DNA from: an uncultured Gammaproteobacteria bacterium
GTDB lineage: Bacteria; Patescibacteriota; Patescibacteriia; Patescibacteriales; JAKAJF01
Assembly: GCA_964652175.1 (NCBI GenBank)
Contig: CAZZBC010000002.1
Coordinates: 1 to 36,839 of the forward strand
Direction of reading: 5' to 3'
DNA: 36,839 nt
Shown here: positions 25,327 to 29,482 of the stretch, piece by piece
How the letters are laid out: each line of letters begins with the position of its first letter
Numbering within the stretch: the first letter of the stretch is position 1
The notes under the pieces: model-generated
Databases searched by the model: none
Seen by the model: the letters and a program-made list of their open reading frames with translations, nothing else
Told to the model about the DNA's origin: nothing
Made by a program: the position numbers and the translations under genes

Positions 25327-25875
25327 ATGTTTAGTGGTCAAAAAAATCAAAAATCTCAAAGGGGTTTTACGCTGATTGAACTGATAGTAAGCATATCCGT
25401 TATCGCCATGATGTCCGGTTTGTTTTTGGCCAATTATCATTCCGCGAACAAACGTTCGGAGTTGGCAAGCGCCGCCCAAAAAACGGCCAGTGACATCCGT
25501 TTGGCGCAGCAGTTCAGTTTGGGCGCCAATGAATTCAACGGCGCGCCTCCGGCCGGGGGATGGGGAATATATTTTGACGAATCTTCTCCGGATTCCTATA
25601 TTATTTTCGCCGATATTGATGAAAATCGCAATTATGACAGCGGCGAAGAACACGCGCGGGTAAATTTGCCCGTTGGCGTAAGCATAGAAGAAATAGAGGA
25701 CAGCGATACGGGAATTATTATCACCAACGCCTCTGTTGTTTTTTTGCCTCCCGATCCGATTACTTATATTAATAACTCCAGCGGCAATAATGTTTCCATA
25801 ACCTTAAAAGATGTTAATAATTCCGTAAAAACGGTAGAGGTTAATTTTTTGGGGTTGGTAGAAGTGGTTGACTAA
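25327..25875 (+). CDS. Prepilin-type (minor pilin/pseudopilin) protein
   Basis: MFSGQKNQKSQRG/FTLIELIVSISVIAMM is a class III signal with Glu at +5. Confidence 0.85.
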   Translation: MFSGQKNQKSQRGFTLIELIVSISVIAMMSGLFLANYHSANKRSELASAAQKTASDIRLAQQFSLGANEFNGAPPAGGWGIYFDESSPDSYIIFADIDENRNYDSGEEHARVNLPVGVSIEEIEDSDTGIIITNASVVFLPPDPITYINNSSGNNVSITLKDVNNSVKTVEVNFLGLVEVVD

Positions 25876-25893
25876 CATAATTCAAATCTACAA

Positions 25894-26418
25894 ATGAAAT
25901 TCAAATCTACAAATAAAGAGGGATTCACGCTTATAGAATTAACGGTGATTATTTTTATTATTTCCTTGGCGATGGTCGGCGTGTTGTCTTTGGTTATTCA
26001 AAATATCCAGGTTGAATATATCAACAAAAACACTTTAATCGCCTCGCAGTTGGCGCAGGAAGGGCTGGAATTGGTCAGAAATAAAAGGGATGCCAATTGG
26101 CTCGCGGCCGGCAACAACTGGAAAACAGGCACCAGCACCGATCCGAATACCAATATCGCGCAGGACGGAAATTACGCGATTGATTATTCAGGGGCCATTG
26201 ACGGAGCGGTTAATTCAATAGAAGAAAATGGAGCCAAGCTTAAAATTGACGACAACGGTTTTTATTGGCACGGCACGGGCGAGGCAAGCAATTTCAGCCG
26301 TTTGATTTCAGTTGTTGATTACGGAAATTATTTGGCGGCTTCTTCCACTGCGCGTTGGCGGGAGCGTGGCAATTATTACAATTATGCGGCCGAGACTATT
26401 TTATATGACTGGAAGTAA
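25894..26418 (+). CDS. Prepilin-type (minor pilin/pseudopilin) protein
   Basis: MKFKSTNKEG/FTLIELTVIIFIISLAMVG. Confidence 0.85.
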   Translation: MKFKSTNKEGFTLIELTVIIFIISLAMVGVLSLVIQNIQVEYINKNTLIASQLAQEGLELVRNKRDANWLAAGNNWKTGTSTDPNTNIAQDGNYAIDYSGAIDGAVNSIEENGAKLKIDDNGFYWHGTGEASNFSRLISVVDYGNYLAASSTARWRERGNYYNYAAETILYDWK

Positions 26419-26421
26419 GAG

Positions 26422-26488
26422 CTACGAAATTACGAAAAAATACGAAAGTACGAATTCGTAATTTCGTAAAAAATTCGCAATTTCGTAG
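26422..26488. repeat. Inverted-repeat element (CGAAAT family)
   Basis: CTACGAAATTACGAA...central GAATTC...TTCGCAATTTCGTAG. It is placed immediately after a stop codon. Confidence 0.7.
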
Positions 26489-26520
26489 AGAATTAATTGG
26501 TAAATAAAAGTTAAGCGTTT

Positions 26521-27093
26521 ATGTTTGATAAAATTTTAAAAAATAATAGCGGAACGACATTACTAGAATTGATGGTGGCGGTGGCTATTTTTGCCGTGGT
26601 TATGTTGGCGGCCATGGGGATATTTAGGGCGGTGGTTGACGGCCAGCGCAGCGCCGTGGCGGCGCAAAACACCCAGGAAAGCGTGCGTTATGCTTTGGAA
26701 ATGACGGCCAAGGAAATCAGGACGGCCCAGCCAAGCGACGGTTCATGTAAATCGGTTTTCAACCCCGAGCCGACTCCTCTTTTTCAGATTTTTAACACCG
26801 CCGATAACGGCGGCGCCTTGTATTTTAAAAATAAAAACGAGGATTGTGTTGGTTATTATTTGGAAAGCGGCCGTTTGAAAATTACGCGGGGAGCGGATGC
26901 GGGCTTTATAACGCCAGCCGCGGTTAAGATCAGCGGCTTGAAATTCAGCGTCAACGACGAAGACATGGGCGTTTCGCCGCGCGGGTCGCAGGCGGCGGTT
27001 ACTATGGAGACGGATATTGAGGCGATTGGCAAAGAAGCGCATAAACAAACGATGAAAATACAAACAACCGTTTCGTCGAGGTACTATGAATAG
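26521..27093 (+). CDS. Prepilin-type protein (PilW/GspJ-like minor pilin)
   Basis: MFDKILKNNSG/TTLLELMVAVAIFAVVMLAAMG. Confidence 0.8.
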   Translation: MFDKILKNNSGTTLLELMVAVAIFAVVMLAAMGIFRAVVDGQRSAVAAQNTQESVRYALEMTAKEIRTAQPSDGSCKSVFNPEPTPLFQIFNTADNGGALYFKNKNEDCVGYYLESGRLKITRGADAGFITPAAVKISGLKFSVNDEDMGVSPRGSQAAVTMETDIEAIGKEAHKQTMKIQTTVSSRYYE

Positions 27094-27098
27094 GTATA

Positions 27099-27803
27099 AT
27101 GCGAACATCGCGAATTTATATGCGAATACTGCAAATTGCGAATAATTTTAAAATCCCCCCAATCCCCTTTGTTAAAGGGGGTGAACGGGGCACGGCGCTT
27201 TTAATGACGTTGCTTATATTGTCGGGCATTTTGGTCGTAACTTTGGGAGCGGCAAGCTTGGTGGCGCAGGGAATTTTAATGGGCCGGACGCAGGCGCGGT
27301 CCACTAAAGCGTTTTTTGCCGCGGAAACGGGAGGAGAAAATGTTTTATGGGAAGTGAGAAAAAACGGCTACGTTCTGCCGGAACAAAATCAAGAGGATGT
27401 TTTCAACGGCGCTTTAAGCAACGGCGCCGTTTACTCCGTTGATTACGCGACCAGCAGCCCTTATGTGTATTTTACTTCCGACGGCTCTTACCGCCAGACC
27501 AGGCGCAGCGTGGAAATAGGGTTTGTCGGAGGCGTGGGAGGAGGAGCTCCTTGTGTTCCCGATTGCGCGAGCAAGCTATGCGGCGATAACGACGGTTGCG
27601 GCGGAACTTGTCCTGCCGATTGTTCGGCCGTTCCCGGCTGCCGCGATTTGGCTCCGTCCAATTCCGGCATCGTGTCCGGCAGCTGCTGCTCCGGCAATTG
27701 TTACCAATGCGACAGCGGCTATCAATGGGACGGGGCGGATTGCGTTTTATCTGTGTCCGGTTGCGTGTTCGGTTCCATAATATTTCCTTGCGCCCTTCAA
27801 TAA
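27099..27803 (+). CDS. PilX-like pilus-associated protein with Cys-rich C-terminal domain
   Basis: The hydrophobic segment GTALLMTLLILSGILVVTLGAASLV is followed by a pilX-N-like region. The C-terminus has CVPDCASKLCGDNDGCGGTCPADC and CCSGNCYQC. The first 35 codons are repeat-derived, and ATG 27204 is an alternative start. Confidence 0.6.
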   Translation: MRTSRIYMRILQIANNFKIPPIPFVKGGERGTALLMTLLILSGILVVTLGAASLVAQGILMGRTQARSTKAFFAAETGGENVLWEVRKNGYVLPEQNQEDVFNGALSNGAVYSVDYATSSPYVYFTSDGSYRQTRRSVEIGFVGGVGGGAPCVPDCASKLCGDNDGCGGTCPADCSAVPGCRDLAPSNSGIVSGSCCSGNCYQCDSGYQWDGADCVLSVSGCVFGSIIFPCALQ

Positions 27804-27842
27804 GGATATAATTTAATATAAAATAAAACTATTAAAAATTCT

Positions 27843-28910
27843 ATGAAAAAACCATCACAATCCAAAAAAGAAATGAGAAAACTGCGCGTAAAATTGGCGG
27901 CGGCTTTGTTTTTGCTTGCCGTCGCGGCAATAAGCGCCGCTTTTTTGCCTGCCGATTTTTTAAAACAAGGCGTTCTAGCGGCCTTAACAGGCAATTATAA
28001 CAAAGTGAACGGCGATTCGTTAACTGTCACTGATTGGAATAATTTGGATAACGACTTTATTAATGTCGGCACAAGCGGCCAAAACCAAACGATGCTGGGC
28101 GGGCTGGGGATAGGGGAAGGTTTTACAGTTGGTGGCAATTCCTCTTTTACTGGCAACGTCGGTATCGGCACGGCGAGTCCTGGGGAAAAATTGGATGTAA
28201 ATGGCGCAGGCAAGTTTAAACAGGGTTATTTTTCCGCGGTATCGGGAATTCCGTATGTTTGGCTTGGTTATAACGACGGAACAAGAGATTATGGCGTTTA
28301 TCAATGGCAAGCCGCGGGCACCGCTCCTGTTAATTATTTTCAAAATAACGTCGGTATCGGCACGGCGAATCCGGGAGCGAAATTGGAAGTTACCGGAGAC
28401 ATTAAATTATCAGGAGTATCGCCGACTTATAAAATAACCAATTTAATTTCTCCCACCGCCTCAACCGACGCGGCTACAAAAGGTTATGTGGACGCGGCGG
28501 CGGGAGGCGGGGCAACCTGGATGGGTTATACCGCCTCCGCTTATAACGGAAACATGGGCGGCACCAAGGGCATAAATAATTATTGCAACAGCAATTATTC
28601 GGGGAGCCACGCTTGCACTTGGGATGAGATAATAAGATTGGGAAATTCGTATCCATGGTCGTATGAGGCTTGGGTGGTGGATGGAACCAGAGATGTTGAA
28701 TTTGTAAATAGCGGCGTCGGCGACGGCGTTGCTTTTGGTAAAGACGGCCGCGTTATACGAGATGGCGCCGGCACTGATGCCCGCACTTCCACTAATTGTT
28801 TTGGTTGGTCTAATTCTGAATCCGGTCGAAACGGTCCCATAGTTTTGACCAGCGGTTATATGTCTGCCGGCGATTGTTTTTCCACATATAGAGCGCCATG
28901 TTGCAAATAG
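27843..28910 (+). CDS. Signal-anchored tail-fibre-like protein with Cys-containing C-terminal (DUF1554/lectin-like) domain
   Basis: N-terminal anchor. The LGGLGIGEGFTVGGNSSFTGNVGIGTASPGEKLDV block is shared with 18398-20155. An ATKGYVDAA motif is typical of phage fibres. The C-terminus reads YNGNMGGTKGINNYCNSNYSGSHACTWDE...PCCK. Confidence 0.65.
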   Translation: MKKPSQSKKEMRKLRVKLAAALFLLAVAAISAAFLPADFLKQGVLAALTGNYNKVNGDSLTVTDWNNLDNDFINVGTSGQNQTMLGGLGIGEGFTVGGNSSFTGNVGIGTASPGEKLDVNGAGKFKQGYFSAVSGIPYVWLGYNDGTRDYGVYQWQAAGTAPVNYFQNNVGIGTANPGAKLEVTGDIKLSGVSPTYKITNLISPTASTDAATKGYVDAAAGGGATWMGYTASAYNGNMGGTKGINNYCNSNYSGSHACTWDEIIRLGNSYPWSYEAWVVDGTRDVEFVNSGVGDGVAFGKDGRVIRDGAGTDARTSTNCFGWSNSESGRNGPIVLTSGYMSAGDCFSTYRAPCCK

Positions 28911-28927
28911 TTTAGAGAAGTTAACTC

Positions 28928-29482
28928 ATGCGGAATAAAAGTTCTATTTTTATTTTGATTATTGCTTTTTTAATGTTGTTTTTTTATTTTATTAAAAATT
29001 ATAATTTGCCAAAAAAGTTTAGATTTGATTGTATTAATAAAATTAAAGAACGGATTATTCGCGGGAATTCAATGTCCGGCGTTATTGAGGCCGATCAAAC
29101 GGTTAAAATTTTTTTTGGCTATTATAATTGCAACAAGGTTAAGGCGGGAGATGTGGTGGCCTATAATTTTACCGGCAATTCCGAGCCGATTATTAAAATA
29201 GTCAAGGCTATCGGCGGGGACAAGTTTCAGTTAAGGCAATCGCCGGATAAAAGCGGCTGGAATGTGGCCATTAACGATAAAGTCGCGAAAAATTCGGTTG
29301 GTGAGCCGTATATTTTAAATGAAAGTGGGCACAGAATGCTTTTTTTGTATGAAAAAGATTATAAAGGTATTATTCCCGAGAATTCCTATCTTCTGCTTGG
29401 CAATCTGTCCAACGGGACGTTGGACAGTTCGCGATTCGGCCTGGTCAGCAAAAATGATATTTTAGGGAAAGTTGAATATTGA
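28928..29482 (+). CDS. S26-family signal peptidase I-like protein
   Basis: N-terminal TM span. GNSMSG is the Ser nucleophile motif, [11 protein letters not shown] is the Lys box and [16 protein letters not shown] is a GDN..S.DSR-like box. Confidence 0.7.

Follow-up and report, generated by a model that had tools for sequence, protein, structure and literature searches.

A candidate fibre and signal peptidase I tip-adhesin unit of a type IV pilus in Candidatus Falkowbacteria

Closest described systems and layout of the locus

Clusters of the fimU-pilV-pilW-pilX-pilY1 type encode the minor pilins and tip adhesin of type IVa pili in Pseudomonas and Myxococcus (PMC7541494), and the tapA-sipW-tasA operon of Bacillus subtilis provides fibre proteins with a dedicated signal peptidase (PMC9245690). 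Type IV pili of Saccharibacteria carry the lectin-like minor pilins PilX1 and PilX2 (PMC11623550), and variable proteins of diversity-generating retroelements (DGRs) with C-type-lectin-fold variable regions occur in CPR and DPANN (PMC8144416).

By analogy of arrangement, positions 25327-29482 of the window (the whole 36,839-nucleotide stretch of DNA that was analysed) best match a tip-adhesin operon of the fimU-pilVWX-pilY1 type in which a fibre gene fills the PilY1 slot (Table 1). Each begins with a set of four genes for pilin-like proteins, ordered H/I/J/K, of which the fourth has no Glu5 in its leader; the gene that follows encodes a large protein that is not a pilin, starts with a Sec-type signal peptide and carries a binding domain, here putative, at its C-terminus. 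Unlike PilY1, the fifth protein has no beta-propeller and is built like a phage tail fibre: a GNVGIGT stalk leads through a neck to a tip that is small and Cys-rich. The locus further differs by an extra signal peptidase I (S26) gene behind the fibre gene, by its occurrence in a monoderm-like CPR bacterium and by the absence of secretin or assembly genes nearby.

The genes that an earlier note had described here were all recovered in place on the plus strand. A terminator-like hairpin upstream of the minor pilin genes is likely the 5' boundary of the minor-pilin/fibre/S26 transcription unit, and the tight packing downstream of it, with gaps of 18, 102, 26, 39, 17 and 4 nt from mp1 to ligA (4-39 nt with one exception), was counted in favour of a single unit. 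Probably ligA is co-transcribed with the S26 gene, which it follows by 4 nt; the unit thus serves more than pilus and fibre, which counts against the explanation preferred below. This housekeeping neighbour adjoins the module in relative L077 too. On the other side, the gene for a GWAWS..GWISF-repeat protein is a conserved upstream neighbour of the minor pilin genes, with an orthologue in the same place in the Falkowbacteria relative L003 (36% identical) and relatives near S26 in L040, L085 and L058.

Four successive genes with prepilin signals or a PilX-like anchor had been proposed, and this holds: three encode prepilins by PF07963 (N_methyl, cutoff 21.2 bits) and the fourth is PilX-type by its leader. 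The best NCBIfam neighbours all fell below cutoff, namely GspH for mp1 (E 8.6e-8, equivalog cutoff), PilV/GspI for mp2 (TIGR02523 PilV, E 8e-6) and PRK10557 (E 6e-8) and GspJ (E 1.8e-5) for mp3. For mp4, which has an alternative start at 27099, there was no significant family match (PilX_N E 4.7), and its sub-threshold assignment counts against the explanation preferred below. The Cys-rich tip domain ascribed to mp4 is present, as 14 of its 14 Cys lie within the last 87 residues, with the motif CGxxDGCGGTC. Orthologues in L003 and L077 are respectively 49% and 31% identical for mp1, 47-50% and 34% for mp2 and 39% and 32% for mp3, and mp4 has an orthologue in the same position in L003 (29%).

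Table 1. Features of the pilin, fibre and S26 genes and of their surroundings in the window
Feature	Position	Strand	Evidence or remark
Major pilin, PilA/GspG-like prepilin, same pilus system	13904..14353	+	PF07963 38 bits
Prepilin peptidase PilD	16986..17954	+	PF06750, PF01478
Paralogous fibre, C-terminal S74 intramolecular-chaperone domain	18398..20155	+	PF13884 50.4 bits
Secreted GWAWS..GWISF-repeat protein with Ig_Rha78A_N domain	23830..25185	+	PF25788 51.4 bits
Terminator-like hairpin, 12 pairs and T run	25268..25294	+	between Ig-like/GWAW gene and mp1
Minor pilin 1 (mp1), GspH/FimU-like, leader ...QRG↓FTLIELIV	25327..25875	+	PF07963 31.7 bits
Minor pilin 2 (mp2), PilV/GspI-like, leader ...KEG↓FTLIELTV	25894..26418	+	PF07963 23.8 bits
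Minor pilin 3 (mp3), PilW/GspJ-like, leader ...NSG↓TTLLELMV	26521..27093	+	PF07963 29.5 bits
Minor pilin 4 (mp4), PilX/GspK-type by position and leader ERG↓TALLM	27120..27803	+	public gene call start 27120
Fibre protein, 355 aa	27843..28910	+	signal/anchor, N-terminal module, stalk, neck, tip
Fibre Sec-type signal or anchor, residues 1-33	27843-27941
Fibre N-terminal module FLPADF...WNNLDNDF			conserved
Fibre GNVGIGT-repeat stalk	about 28095-28427
Fibre neck DAATKGYVDAA (YKITNLISPTASTDAATKGYVDAA)	28428-28499
Fibre tip, 134 aa, 6 Cys	28506-28907		CCK at end
Signal peptidase I (S26A, Ser/Lys type), TM anchor, fibre-linked clade	28928..29482	+	PF10502, TIGR02227
S26 Ser48	29069-29071
S26 Lys90	29195-29197
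NAD-dependent DNA ligase LigA	29487..31664	+	start 4 nt past S26 stop

The fibre, its tip and the wider pilus region

The structure model of the fibre has an N-terminal hydrophobic helix (H7-34) ending at ISAA↓F, a cleavage site read by eye. The match of its tip to DUF1554 covers just 24 residues and, at 14.2 bits (E 0.039), stays under the threshold of 27.5, and the tip model (pLDDT 62.6) gave top PDB fold matches that are almost all C-type-lectin-like (best E 0.034), which is consistent with such a fold at a sub-threshold level. Of the ligand-binding lectin tip proposed in the earlier note, ligand binding gains indirect support from the DGR-diversified tip of the syntenic fibre in L003, while the DUF1554/C-type-lectin assignment stays sub-threshold and counts against the preferred explanation. 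In L003 the tip is a DGR variable region of 150 nt in which 21 of 21 mismatches fall at template adenines, which suggests that this tip position is a diversified ligand-binding site.

All further components listed for the 12.2-29.5 kb region (ComEC, the major pilin, a Wzy_C and TPR protein, PilD, the S74 fibre and a Cys-rich protein) are present, and, as had also been stated, the window has no gene for PilB, PilT, PilC, PilMNO or a secretin. The lack of an assembly ATPase or platform gene in the window counts against the preferred explanation. The idea of a one-strand super-locus stands as to gene content, but the region is broken at 21.2-23.8 kb by a low-GC stretch (GC 0.35-0.39) with an AAA_14/DUF4143 ATPase, a 193-aa protein and an MNT-HEPN pair; strandedness alone is no evidence, since nearly the whole window lies on one strand, housekeeping genes included. 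Homologues of the major pilin and PilD adjoin the module in L077. The paralogous fibre, named "tail fiber domain-containing protein" by NCBI, has a signal peptide (...SLLAA↓WTNPTQTPPGGN), a stalk that starts as in the 355-aa fibre and 104 nt that are 81% identical to 28096-28199. Prepilin-fibre fusions in L002, L039, L059, P0016, P0018, P0043 and P0048 link the fibre architecture to pili; going by these fusions in other genomes and the operon linkage, the pilus may be decorated with fibres.

The signal peptidase clade and its neighbours in relatives

The S26 protein passed the generic signal peptidase I models PF10502 (50.1 bits, cutoff 22.9) and TIGR02227 (59.2 bits, cutoff 47), whereas the archaeal signal-peptidase model gave 16 bits and TraF models matched weakly (E 4e-5 to 1e-8, far below cutoffs). 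Its Ser and Lys boxes are intact as claimed, with Ser48 and Lys90 invariant in an alignment of 32 homologues, and Cys35 and Cys68 are typical of its clade. The clade comprises about 750-1,000 clusters (754 at E<=1e-10), and as just 1,083 of 1.84 billion representative proteins matched at E<=1e-3 it stands apart from the bulk of signal peptidases I. Contig L019 carries a clade S26 and, 2.9 kb off, a fragment of canonical LepB (80.5 bits to TIGR02227 over 97 aa), so there the clade member is a paralogue.

Neighbourhoods were compared for about 58-60 non-redundant S26 clusters or loci, drawn from 88 loci. The gene at position -1 was a fibre in 15/50 and a DGR reverse transcriptase or Avd in 10/50, against 10/105 for both kinds at positions 4-6 on either side (Fisher p 6e-8); for fibres alone it was 15/50 against 7/105 (p 3e-4). 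Relative to positions 4-6 on either side, position -1 was enriched 6- to 9.5-fold. A DGR reverse transcriptase lay within 5 kb of S26 in 17/60 clusters. In about 40% of clusters neither a fibre nor a DGR gene lay within two genes of S26, though many of these contigs are only 1-3 kb long. The adjacent fibres are not mutual orthologues and have different tips and four N-terminal types, which indicates that the adjacency recurs and is not inherited. They have stalk and neck (..YVDAAAGGG..) in common, and many of their tips, though different, end in CC[KS]; most have ordinary A-x-A signal peptides. At most S26-linked fibre loci no pilin gene was present within the sequence examined per locus.

Gene order is conserved in relatives. 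L003 has the Ig-like/GWAW protein followed by mp1-mp2-mp3-mp4-fibre-(bAvd-RT)-S26, its S26 being 60% identical, and an 804-kb contig (L077) packs pilA-pilD-x-fibre-fibre-S26-mp1-mp2-mp3-ligA within 8 kb. On an archaeal-looking contig with the archaeal markers L37ae, Pcc1 and prefoldin, S26 lies downstream of fibres with the tip type of the window in two independent assemblies, of which the longer has all three fibres and the shorter just the end of the nearest. Together with the position -1 statistics and the coexistence with LepB on L019, this contig lends real support to the description of the S26 as dedicated. In L002 the S26 gene sits between two fibres that both have prepilin leaders, which makes them substrates of PilD rather than signal peptidase I and is unexplained by a simple signal-peptide model.

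Proposed role, alternatives and comparison with known systems

With moderate confidence, we take 25327-29482 to be a fibre/S26 tip-adhesin unit of a type IV pilus in Candidatus Falkowbacteria (CPR/Patescibacteria). The stretch would be a single transcription unit of the pilus system. PilD, encoded 8 kb upstream, would cut the four pilin-like proteins (FimU/GspH, PilV/GspI, PilW/GspJ, PilX/GspK order), which, from what is known of their families, may then form a priming and tip complex. The Sec-exported, probably trimeric, tail-fibre-like protein in the PilY1 slot may bind a ligand on a host or partner cell through its disulfide-rich, probably C-type-lectin-like C-terminal domain. The S26 is predicted to be catalytically competent as a signal peptidase I, and its separate clade to co-evolve with fibre genes. 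Most likely the enzyme would cut off the signal peptide of the fibre (...ISAA↓FLP) at the outward-facing side of the membrane, which would free the conserved N-terminal module for assembly or docking. As relatives repeatedly keep S26 beside fibre genes, the pairing points to a dedicated host-attachment module in a tiny symbiotic CPR bacterium.

The fibre could instead be an independent surface adhesin, membrane-anchored or released, that is co-regulated with the minor pilins and matured by S26. It has no prepilin leader, most S26-linked fibre loci lack a pilin gene in the sequence examined and CPR DGR targets have generally been reported to stand alone (PMC8144416), which makes this possible; however, the gene occupies the operon position of PilY1, fibre genes are again linked to pilA, pilD and minor pilin genes in L003 and L077, and other genomes fuse prepilins to fibres. 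As for S26, it may also, or only, be the general signal peptidase of the cell. That it is the housekeeping enzyme of a reduced genome with no special relation to fibre or pilus, brought near fibres by their abundance and by mosaic CPR operons, is unlikely: the enrichment at position -1, the non-orthologous adjacent fibres, the archaeal-looking contig and the LepB on L019 speak against it, although generic models were passed, ligA follows closely, CPR genomes are small, about 40% of clusters lack any fibre or DGR neighbour up to two genes away and a clade of 754 clusters is as large as a lineage-wide gene could be.

More doubtful still is another role for S26, be it an internal or C-terminal cut of the fibre, the joining of fibres to a component or a SipA/LepA-like chaperone function. 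TraF, an S26 peptidase as well, trims conjugative pilin and closes it into a ring, and the weak TraF matches, the L002 arrangement in which signal peptidase I should not be needed and a linkage spanning four N-terminal types with common stalk, neck and often CC[KS] would fit; yet TraF models stayed below cutoff while TIGR02227 was passed, the intact dyad speaks against a non-catalytic chaperone and most adjacent fibres have ordinary signal peptides. We give very little credence to a prophage or tailocin-like remnant, for which the S74 domain and NCBI name of the paralogue and a weak match of the neck to a solved phage tail fibre (E 0.015) could be cited. The fibre had no tblastn match at E<=1e-3 in 50,697 phage records, the fibres have signal peptides, the flanks are pilin and housekeeping genes and the window has no capsid, tail, portal or terminase gene.

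For the S26, the earlier note had raised SipA/LepA as a speculative analogue. SipA/LepA of streptococcal sortase pili are not known to have the catalytic Ser and Lys; likewise an S26-fold protein encoded within a pilus gene cluster, the window protein differs in that both residues are invariant, and the chaperone analogy is thus not favoured. No gene for a sortase turned up in the window, and the inspected fibres end in motifs such as CCK. SipW, active and operon-encoded, appears to be the closer analogue: in both cases an active-type peptidase is encoded with secreted fibre proteins, its presumed substrates, in addition to a general peptidase, here seen only in relative L019. SipW is of the ER/archaeal type (S26B), whereas the window S26 is of the bacterial Ser/Lys type (TIGR02227 59 bits, archaeal model 16 bits), the fibres bear no relation to TasA and substrate specificity is presumed here.

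As in the CPR and DPANN DGR targets, an N-terminal signal and fibre precede a C-terminal, here putative, ligand-binding tip, and the syntenic L003 gene looks like the target of an active DGR. No reverse transcriptase, Avd or template/variable repeat pair was found in the window, and the tip of the window fibre is another kind of domain, fixed and with CCK at its end. Like PilX1 and PilX2 of Saccharibacteria, the locus belongs to a CPR type IV pilus and has a large accessory domain proposed to bind host glycans; there a pilin itself contains the binding domain, whereas here the domain would sit on a distinct protein, a Sec-exported fibre with an S26 gene of its own.

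Minor pilins, transcription unit, and genomic setting

The six genes running from the first minor pilin (mp1) to the S26 signal peptidase lie exactly at the positions given in an earlier note on this DNA. A class III leader with an N-methylation motif (PF07963/TIGR02532) is present in mp1, mp2, and mp3, as read from the translations, and the nearest named families follow the expected gene order, namely GspH (mp1), PilV/GspI (mp2), and PRK10557/GspJ (mp3), at equivalog scores under their cutoffs (32.4 vs 80, 26.4 vs 52.2, and 32.2 vs 120, respectively). The description of four pilin-like genes holds for these three, which pass PF07963; mp4 has a PilX-type leader, but the family profile search gave no significant match for it (PilX_N, PF14341: E 4.7, 7.7 bits vs 25.5). 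A pilin-type leader without Glu5 has been described for PilX proteins (PMC7541494). The Cys-rich tail ascribed to the last pilin gene is there, as all 14 cysteines of mp4 fall within its last 87 residues. Searched against the sequences of solved structures, mp4 and the fibre returned nothing useful except the fibre neck motif.

A motif C..CG.DGCGG.C occurs in the mp4 tail (window 27540-27800), in three copies in the mp4 orthologue of the related contig L003, and in a 328-aa Cys-rich protein (20205-21191). It looks like a small disulfide module common to exported proteins of the locus.

Features of the operon in the window and of the diversity-generating retroelement (DGR) on the related contig L003 (slash, cleavage site)
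Feature	Coordinates	Strand	Description
mp1	25327-25875	+	PF07963 31.7 bits (cutoff 21.2); leader RG/FTLIE
mp2	25894-26418	+	PF07963 23.8 bits (cutoff 21.2); leader EG/FTLIE
mp3	26521-27093	+	PF07963 29.5 bits (cutoff 21.2); leader SG/TTLLE
mp4	27120-27803	+	pilin-type leader ...ERG/TALLMTLLIL without Glu5; fourth in operon
Fibre	27843-28910	+	N-terminal hydrophobic helix ending ISAA/F, GNVGIGT stalk repeats, neck, 134-residue tip
S26	28928-29482	+	PF10502 50.1 bits (cutoff 22.9); TIGR02227 59.2 bits (cutoff 47)
L003 DGR	6058-9898		
L003 bAvd (DGR accessory protein)	8197-8541		
L003 reverse transcriptase (RT)	8538-9680		
L003 template	about 9674-9824	opposite	

A 12-pair hairpin followed by a T run (25268-25294) lies just 5' of mp1, the gaps from mp1 to ligA are short (18, 102, 26, 39, 17, and 4 nt), and no terminator comparable to this hairpin was found between mp1 and ligA; the transcription unit therefore probably spans mp1 through S26 into ligA. 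Nearly all window genes are on the + strand. Since these include many housekeeping genes (YbeY, DAG kinase, FtsA, FtsZ, NrdR, NrdD, radical-SAM activase, NUDIX, release factor, LigA, GatC, GatA, MurB, and a DsbA-like protein), strandedness is no evidence of a functional unit.

Upstream, ComEC, the major pilin, a Wzy_C/TPR protein, PilD, a paralogous fibre (the S74 fibre), and the Cys-rich protein were all confirmed. So was the stated absence of PilB, PilT, PilC, PilM/N/O, and secretin, none of which occurs within the 36.8-kb window, which does encode PilD and the major pilin. The idea that these genes form a one-strand super-locus stands in part. On L077, an 804-kb contig (S26 and LigA both 50% identical), genes dispersed along 17 kb of the window are gathered into a single 8-kb block of pilus and fibre genes, pilA-pilD-x-fibre-fibre-S26-mp1-mp2-mp3-ligA, which is better support than strandedness; both fibres align to that of the window over 277-292 residues. 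In the window, however, a low-GC stretch at 21.2-23.8 kb (21245-23833; GC 0.35-0.39 vs about 0.45) separates the upstream block from the operon. It encodes an AAA_14/DUF4143 ATPase, a 193-aa membrane protein, and an MNT-HEPN toxin-antitoxin-like pair (nucleotidyltransferase and substrate-binding). Four AAA_14/DUF4143 copies lie nearby on L003.

Gene order is kept on L003, a 47.5-kb contig from a Falkowbacteria CG11 relative, where an Ig-like/GWAW protein is followed by mp1 (49%), mp2 (47-50%), mp3 (39%), mp4 (29%), a 703-aa fibre, and S26, which is 60% identical to that of the window; ligA does not come next after S26.

Several other genes of the window encode exported or membrane proteins. 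An 801-aa membrane protein (14584-16989), encoded between the genes for the major pilin and PilD, joins an O-antigen-ligase-like Wzy_C domain to C-terminal TPR repeats. Wzy_C also occurs in pilin O-glycosyltransferases such as PilO/TfpO and PglL, so pilin may be glycosylated by the 801-aa protein. A secreted GWAWS.NIGWISF-repeat protein with an Ig_Rha78A_N domain (23830-25185) immediately precedes the minor pilins in both the window and L003, and relatives of it occur near S26-clade genes at three other loci (L040, L085, and L058). Between pilD and the S74 fibre, the gene of a 131-aa membrane-anchored protein (17992-18387) carries an internal 81-nt tandem duplication (18139-18288, ELSPEEKREQLL...). 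The window opens with a protein carrying bacterial thrombospondin type 3 (TSP3) calcium-binding repeats (53-745), probably another surface protein.

The fibre, its tip, and its proposed link to the pilus

The fibre gene directly follows mp4, 39 nt downstream, and the signal-peptide cleavage site at the end of its N-terminal helix was read by eye. The 355-aa protein had no Pfam match at E<=0.1, hence no PilY1 beta-propeller and no Peptidase_S74 domain; of the two fibres, only the paralogue (18398-20155) has this C-terminal chaperone domain. Where the stalk begins, the two fibre genes are 81% identical over 104 nt (28096-28199 vs 18585-18688), a stretch that could act as a recombination substrate for tip exchange. 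Only the neck, YKITNLISPTASTDAATKGYVDAA, resembles a solved phage tail fibre (E 0.015). That the fibre is itself of phage origin is extremely improbable, as tblastn of the fibre against 50,697 phage records gave no match, no other phage gene accompanies it, and the fibres carry signal peptides.

The 134-residue tip has six cysteines and ends in CCK. At the sequence level such tips are rare, with only four proteins returned by a search with the tip alone and about eight by one with the whole protein. Four homologues are too few for a deep alignment, and the AlphaFold model of residues 195-355 therefore stayed at a pLDDT of 62.6 (pTM 0.62), with a confident core. Among the top 50 Foldseek matches of this model in the PDB, almost all were C-type-lectin-like (snake-venom lectins, mannose-binding protein, mannose-receptor domains, and endostatin), the best at E 0.034 and probability 0.63 with a TM of 0.3-0.45; a viral structure library gave the same fold class, not significantly. 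In Pfam, DUF1554 matched the window tip at E 0.039 (14.2 bits vs a cutoff of 27.5, 24 residues aligned) and the tip of L005, a contig with archaeal markers, at E 0.032, while FGE-sulfatase matched the L003 tip at E 0.039, all sub-threshold; endostatin matched the tip of a fibre on the related contig L002 at E 0.0014 across its whole length, under the cutoff. The resemblance to DUF1554 and C-type lectins noted before is thus one on which Pfam and PDB fold matches agree, but with every match below threshold, and the tip is a likely candidate for a C-type-lectin-like fold.

Homology of the tip to endostatin, or to the endostatin-like tip of L002, was not established, as profile comparison (hhalign) gave probabilities below 10% (0.7% and 9.9%, respectively) and a weak C-terminal match only. 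Tips that appear unrelated in sequence share CC[KS] ends, seen in the window (28890-28907) and in fibres of L005, L007, L042, L043, and L078 (YRAPCCK, YYLACCK, RCALCCK, VICCK, ALCCK, and FRCCK); some of these are similar to GFRCVR, with which DGR variable regions end.

The full-length monomer model had a pLDDT of 57.9 and its stalk did not resolve, as expected because the fibre is probably a trimer.

The genes would form a minor-pilin and tip-adhesin operon in which a putatively lectin-tipped, tail-fibre-like protein replaces PilY1. We infer the link between fibre and pilus from the position of the fibre in the PilY1 slot with a Sec signal, from its linkage to pilins, which recurs in L003 and L077, and from fusions elsewhere of a prepilin leader and minor-pilin-like domain to a fibre-type stalk. 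Such fusions were found on L002 (two genes), L039, and L059, and prepilin-fibre fusions also occur in four of the best 120 fibre homologues. A fibre acting independently of the pilus, which would be compatible with a dedicated peptidase, is the less probable reading, though one to be taken seriously.

The S26 clade, its fibres, and retroelements

S26 is an S26A signal peptidase I by both family profiles, with a hydrophobic N-terminus as membrane anchor and, as the earlier note had it, intact Ser and Lys boxes: Ser48 and Lys90 are invariant in an alignment of 32 homologues. An indexed search gave 35 homologues, a scan of a genome collection at least one locus (L002), and a metagenome scan 231 homologues, and an exhaustive search of 1.84 billion representative proteins found only 1,083 at E<=1e-3 (754 at E<=1e-10 and 124 at E<=1e-30), which by sequence similarity sets S26 in a sizeable clade well separated from the bulk of signal peptidase I.

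Eighty of the 231 metagenome-scan loci were taken, and the 88 loci in all fell into 60 clusters at 90% S26 identity. Neighbours were classed by strict motifs (stalk, neck, N-terminal signature, and prepilin leader) or, for RT and Avd, by BLAST clusters. Position -1 of S26 held a fibre in 15/50 clusters and a DGR RT or Avd in 10/50, and position +1 a fibre in 4/51, against seven fibres and three DGR genes among the 105 genes at positions 4-6 on either side. The excess at -1 was significant for fibres (Fisher p 3e-4) and for fibre or DGR genes together (25/50 vs 10/105, p 6e-8), so the adjacency expected of a dedicated peptidase is borne out. The adjacent fibres are not mutually orthologous, their tips differ, and their N-termini are of four types (A/WTxPxxxPP, A/xPxIPNPGHG, AAF(F)LP...WNxLxNDF as in the window, and prepilin leaders), which argues that the adjacency is recurrent and not inherited synteny.

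In 13 of the 60 clusters (L039:8832-9302 and 12 others), the clade S26 is closely followed by a gene of a small membrane-anchored family (about 140 aa, Y.AVYL.TGD.YFGKL, no Pfam match), which in 10 is the very next gene and is itself often followed by fam7 and a PilM/PilN-like gene. In the window, neither this family nor the fam3 and fam7/PilM-like neighbours of S26 at other loci have a counterpart.

In 17/60 clusters, a DGR RT is found no more than 5 kb from S26. On L003, the last 150 nt of the fibre gene are a classic DGR variable region ending ...GFRCVR, followed by bAvd and RT. Wherever template and variable region differ over these 150 nt (21/21 mismatches), the template has an adenine (changed to G in 17 cases, to T in 2, and to C in 2), and the element is apparently active. 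Its inverted template is unusual for a DGR. In the window, Pfam annotation and a repeat search for a DGR remnant revealed no RT, no Avd, and no template/variable repeat. The varied tip of the syntenic L003 fibre independently supports the view that this position encodes a ligand-binding site. According to published surveys, DGR targets in Patescibacteria (CPR) and DPANN lack recognisable domains (PMC8144416).

In most S26-adjacent fibres, an ordinary A-x-A site precedes a conserved mature N-terminus, and in the simplest reading S26 would remove the signal peptides of these fibres, much as SipW acts on TasA and TapA. That S26 is purely a housekeeping peptidase is unlikely given the company of its relatives. 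L005 and L006, independent assemblies of one contig type with the archaeal markers L37ae, Pcc1, prefoldin, and UPF0147, carry a clade S26 downstream of fibres. On L005 (1-6700), three fibre genes, two with the tip type of the window (33-39% identical, ending CCK or CCS), precede an S26 of bacterial type, 54% identical to that of the window; on the shorter L006, nothing but the end of the nearest fibre precedes S26. These contigs suggest transfer of a fibre and peptidase cassette across domains. L019, a 5.5-kb contig, has a clade S26 (55% identical to that of the window) and, 2.9 kb on, the start of a second S26 gene (5191-5481) with the canonical LepB motifs SGSSMVPN and FIKRIIGLPGE; this 97-residue fragment scores 80.5 bits to TIGR02227, more than full-length clade members. 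On L019 at least, the fibre-linked S26 is a paralogue of canonical LepB. Fam7 and a PilM-like gene lie between the two.

Removal of signal peptides does not fit L002, where S26 is flanked by two fibres whose prepilin leaders should be cut by PilD and not by signal peptidase I. This arrangement keeps a non-canonical role in play, such as internal or C-terminal processing or attachment of the fibres, at a low probability. A wider proposal is a long shot: the clade would be the signature enzyme of an unrecognised fibre-assembly pathway of CPR and DPANN, with a task beyond signal-peptide removal. It would recognise a common feature of tail-fibre-like adhesins, including DGR-diversified and prepilin-fused ones, and process them or attach them to the pilus tip or cell surface, in the manner of sortases or the TraF pilin cyclase of other systems, with the cassette moving between domains as a unit.

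Significance and known systems

Attachment to other cells is the way of life of CPR bacteria and DPANN archaea, yet to our knowledge the molecules by which they find and hold their hosts are largely unknown. The locus and its relatives join type IV pilus tip genes, a tail-fibre-like family with tips that are exchanged from genome to genome or hypermutated by retroelements, and a separate signal-peptidase clade that accompanies fibre genes in different lineages and apparently in both domains. This distinct peptidase clade is tied to tail-fibre-like proteins and DGR targets across CPR and apparently DPANN, a link of which a limited literature search found no description. The finding of the earlier note is real and its interpretation broadly right. 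The clade offers a simple genomic marker for candidate host-recognition fibres in metagenomes, and the locus a concrete, testable maturation step. A specific peptidase would offer a way to block attachment in cultivable CPR-host pairs; were it just the general one, the locus would remain a clear example of a fibre in the PilY1 adhesin slot.

The analogy tentatively drawn before with the SipA/LepA chaperones of sortase pili fares poorly, since an intact Ser/Lys dyad argues against a non-catalytic model; Pfam annotation of the window shows no sortase gene, and those fibre proteins that were inspected have C-terminal motifs such as CCK. PilY1 is likewise encoded after fimU-pilVWX and has a Sec-type signal (PMC7541494), but the fibre is without the PilY1 domain and is an analogue, not a family member. 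SipW removes the signal peptides of TasA and TapA (PMC9245690), and S26 resembles it in being encoded in an operon with its presumed fibre substrates, in a conserved adjacency, and a counterpart of the separate general signal peptidase I that works alongside SipW is seen for the S26 clade only on the related contig L019.
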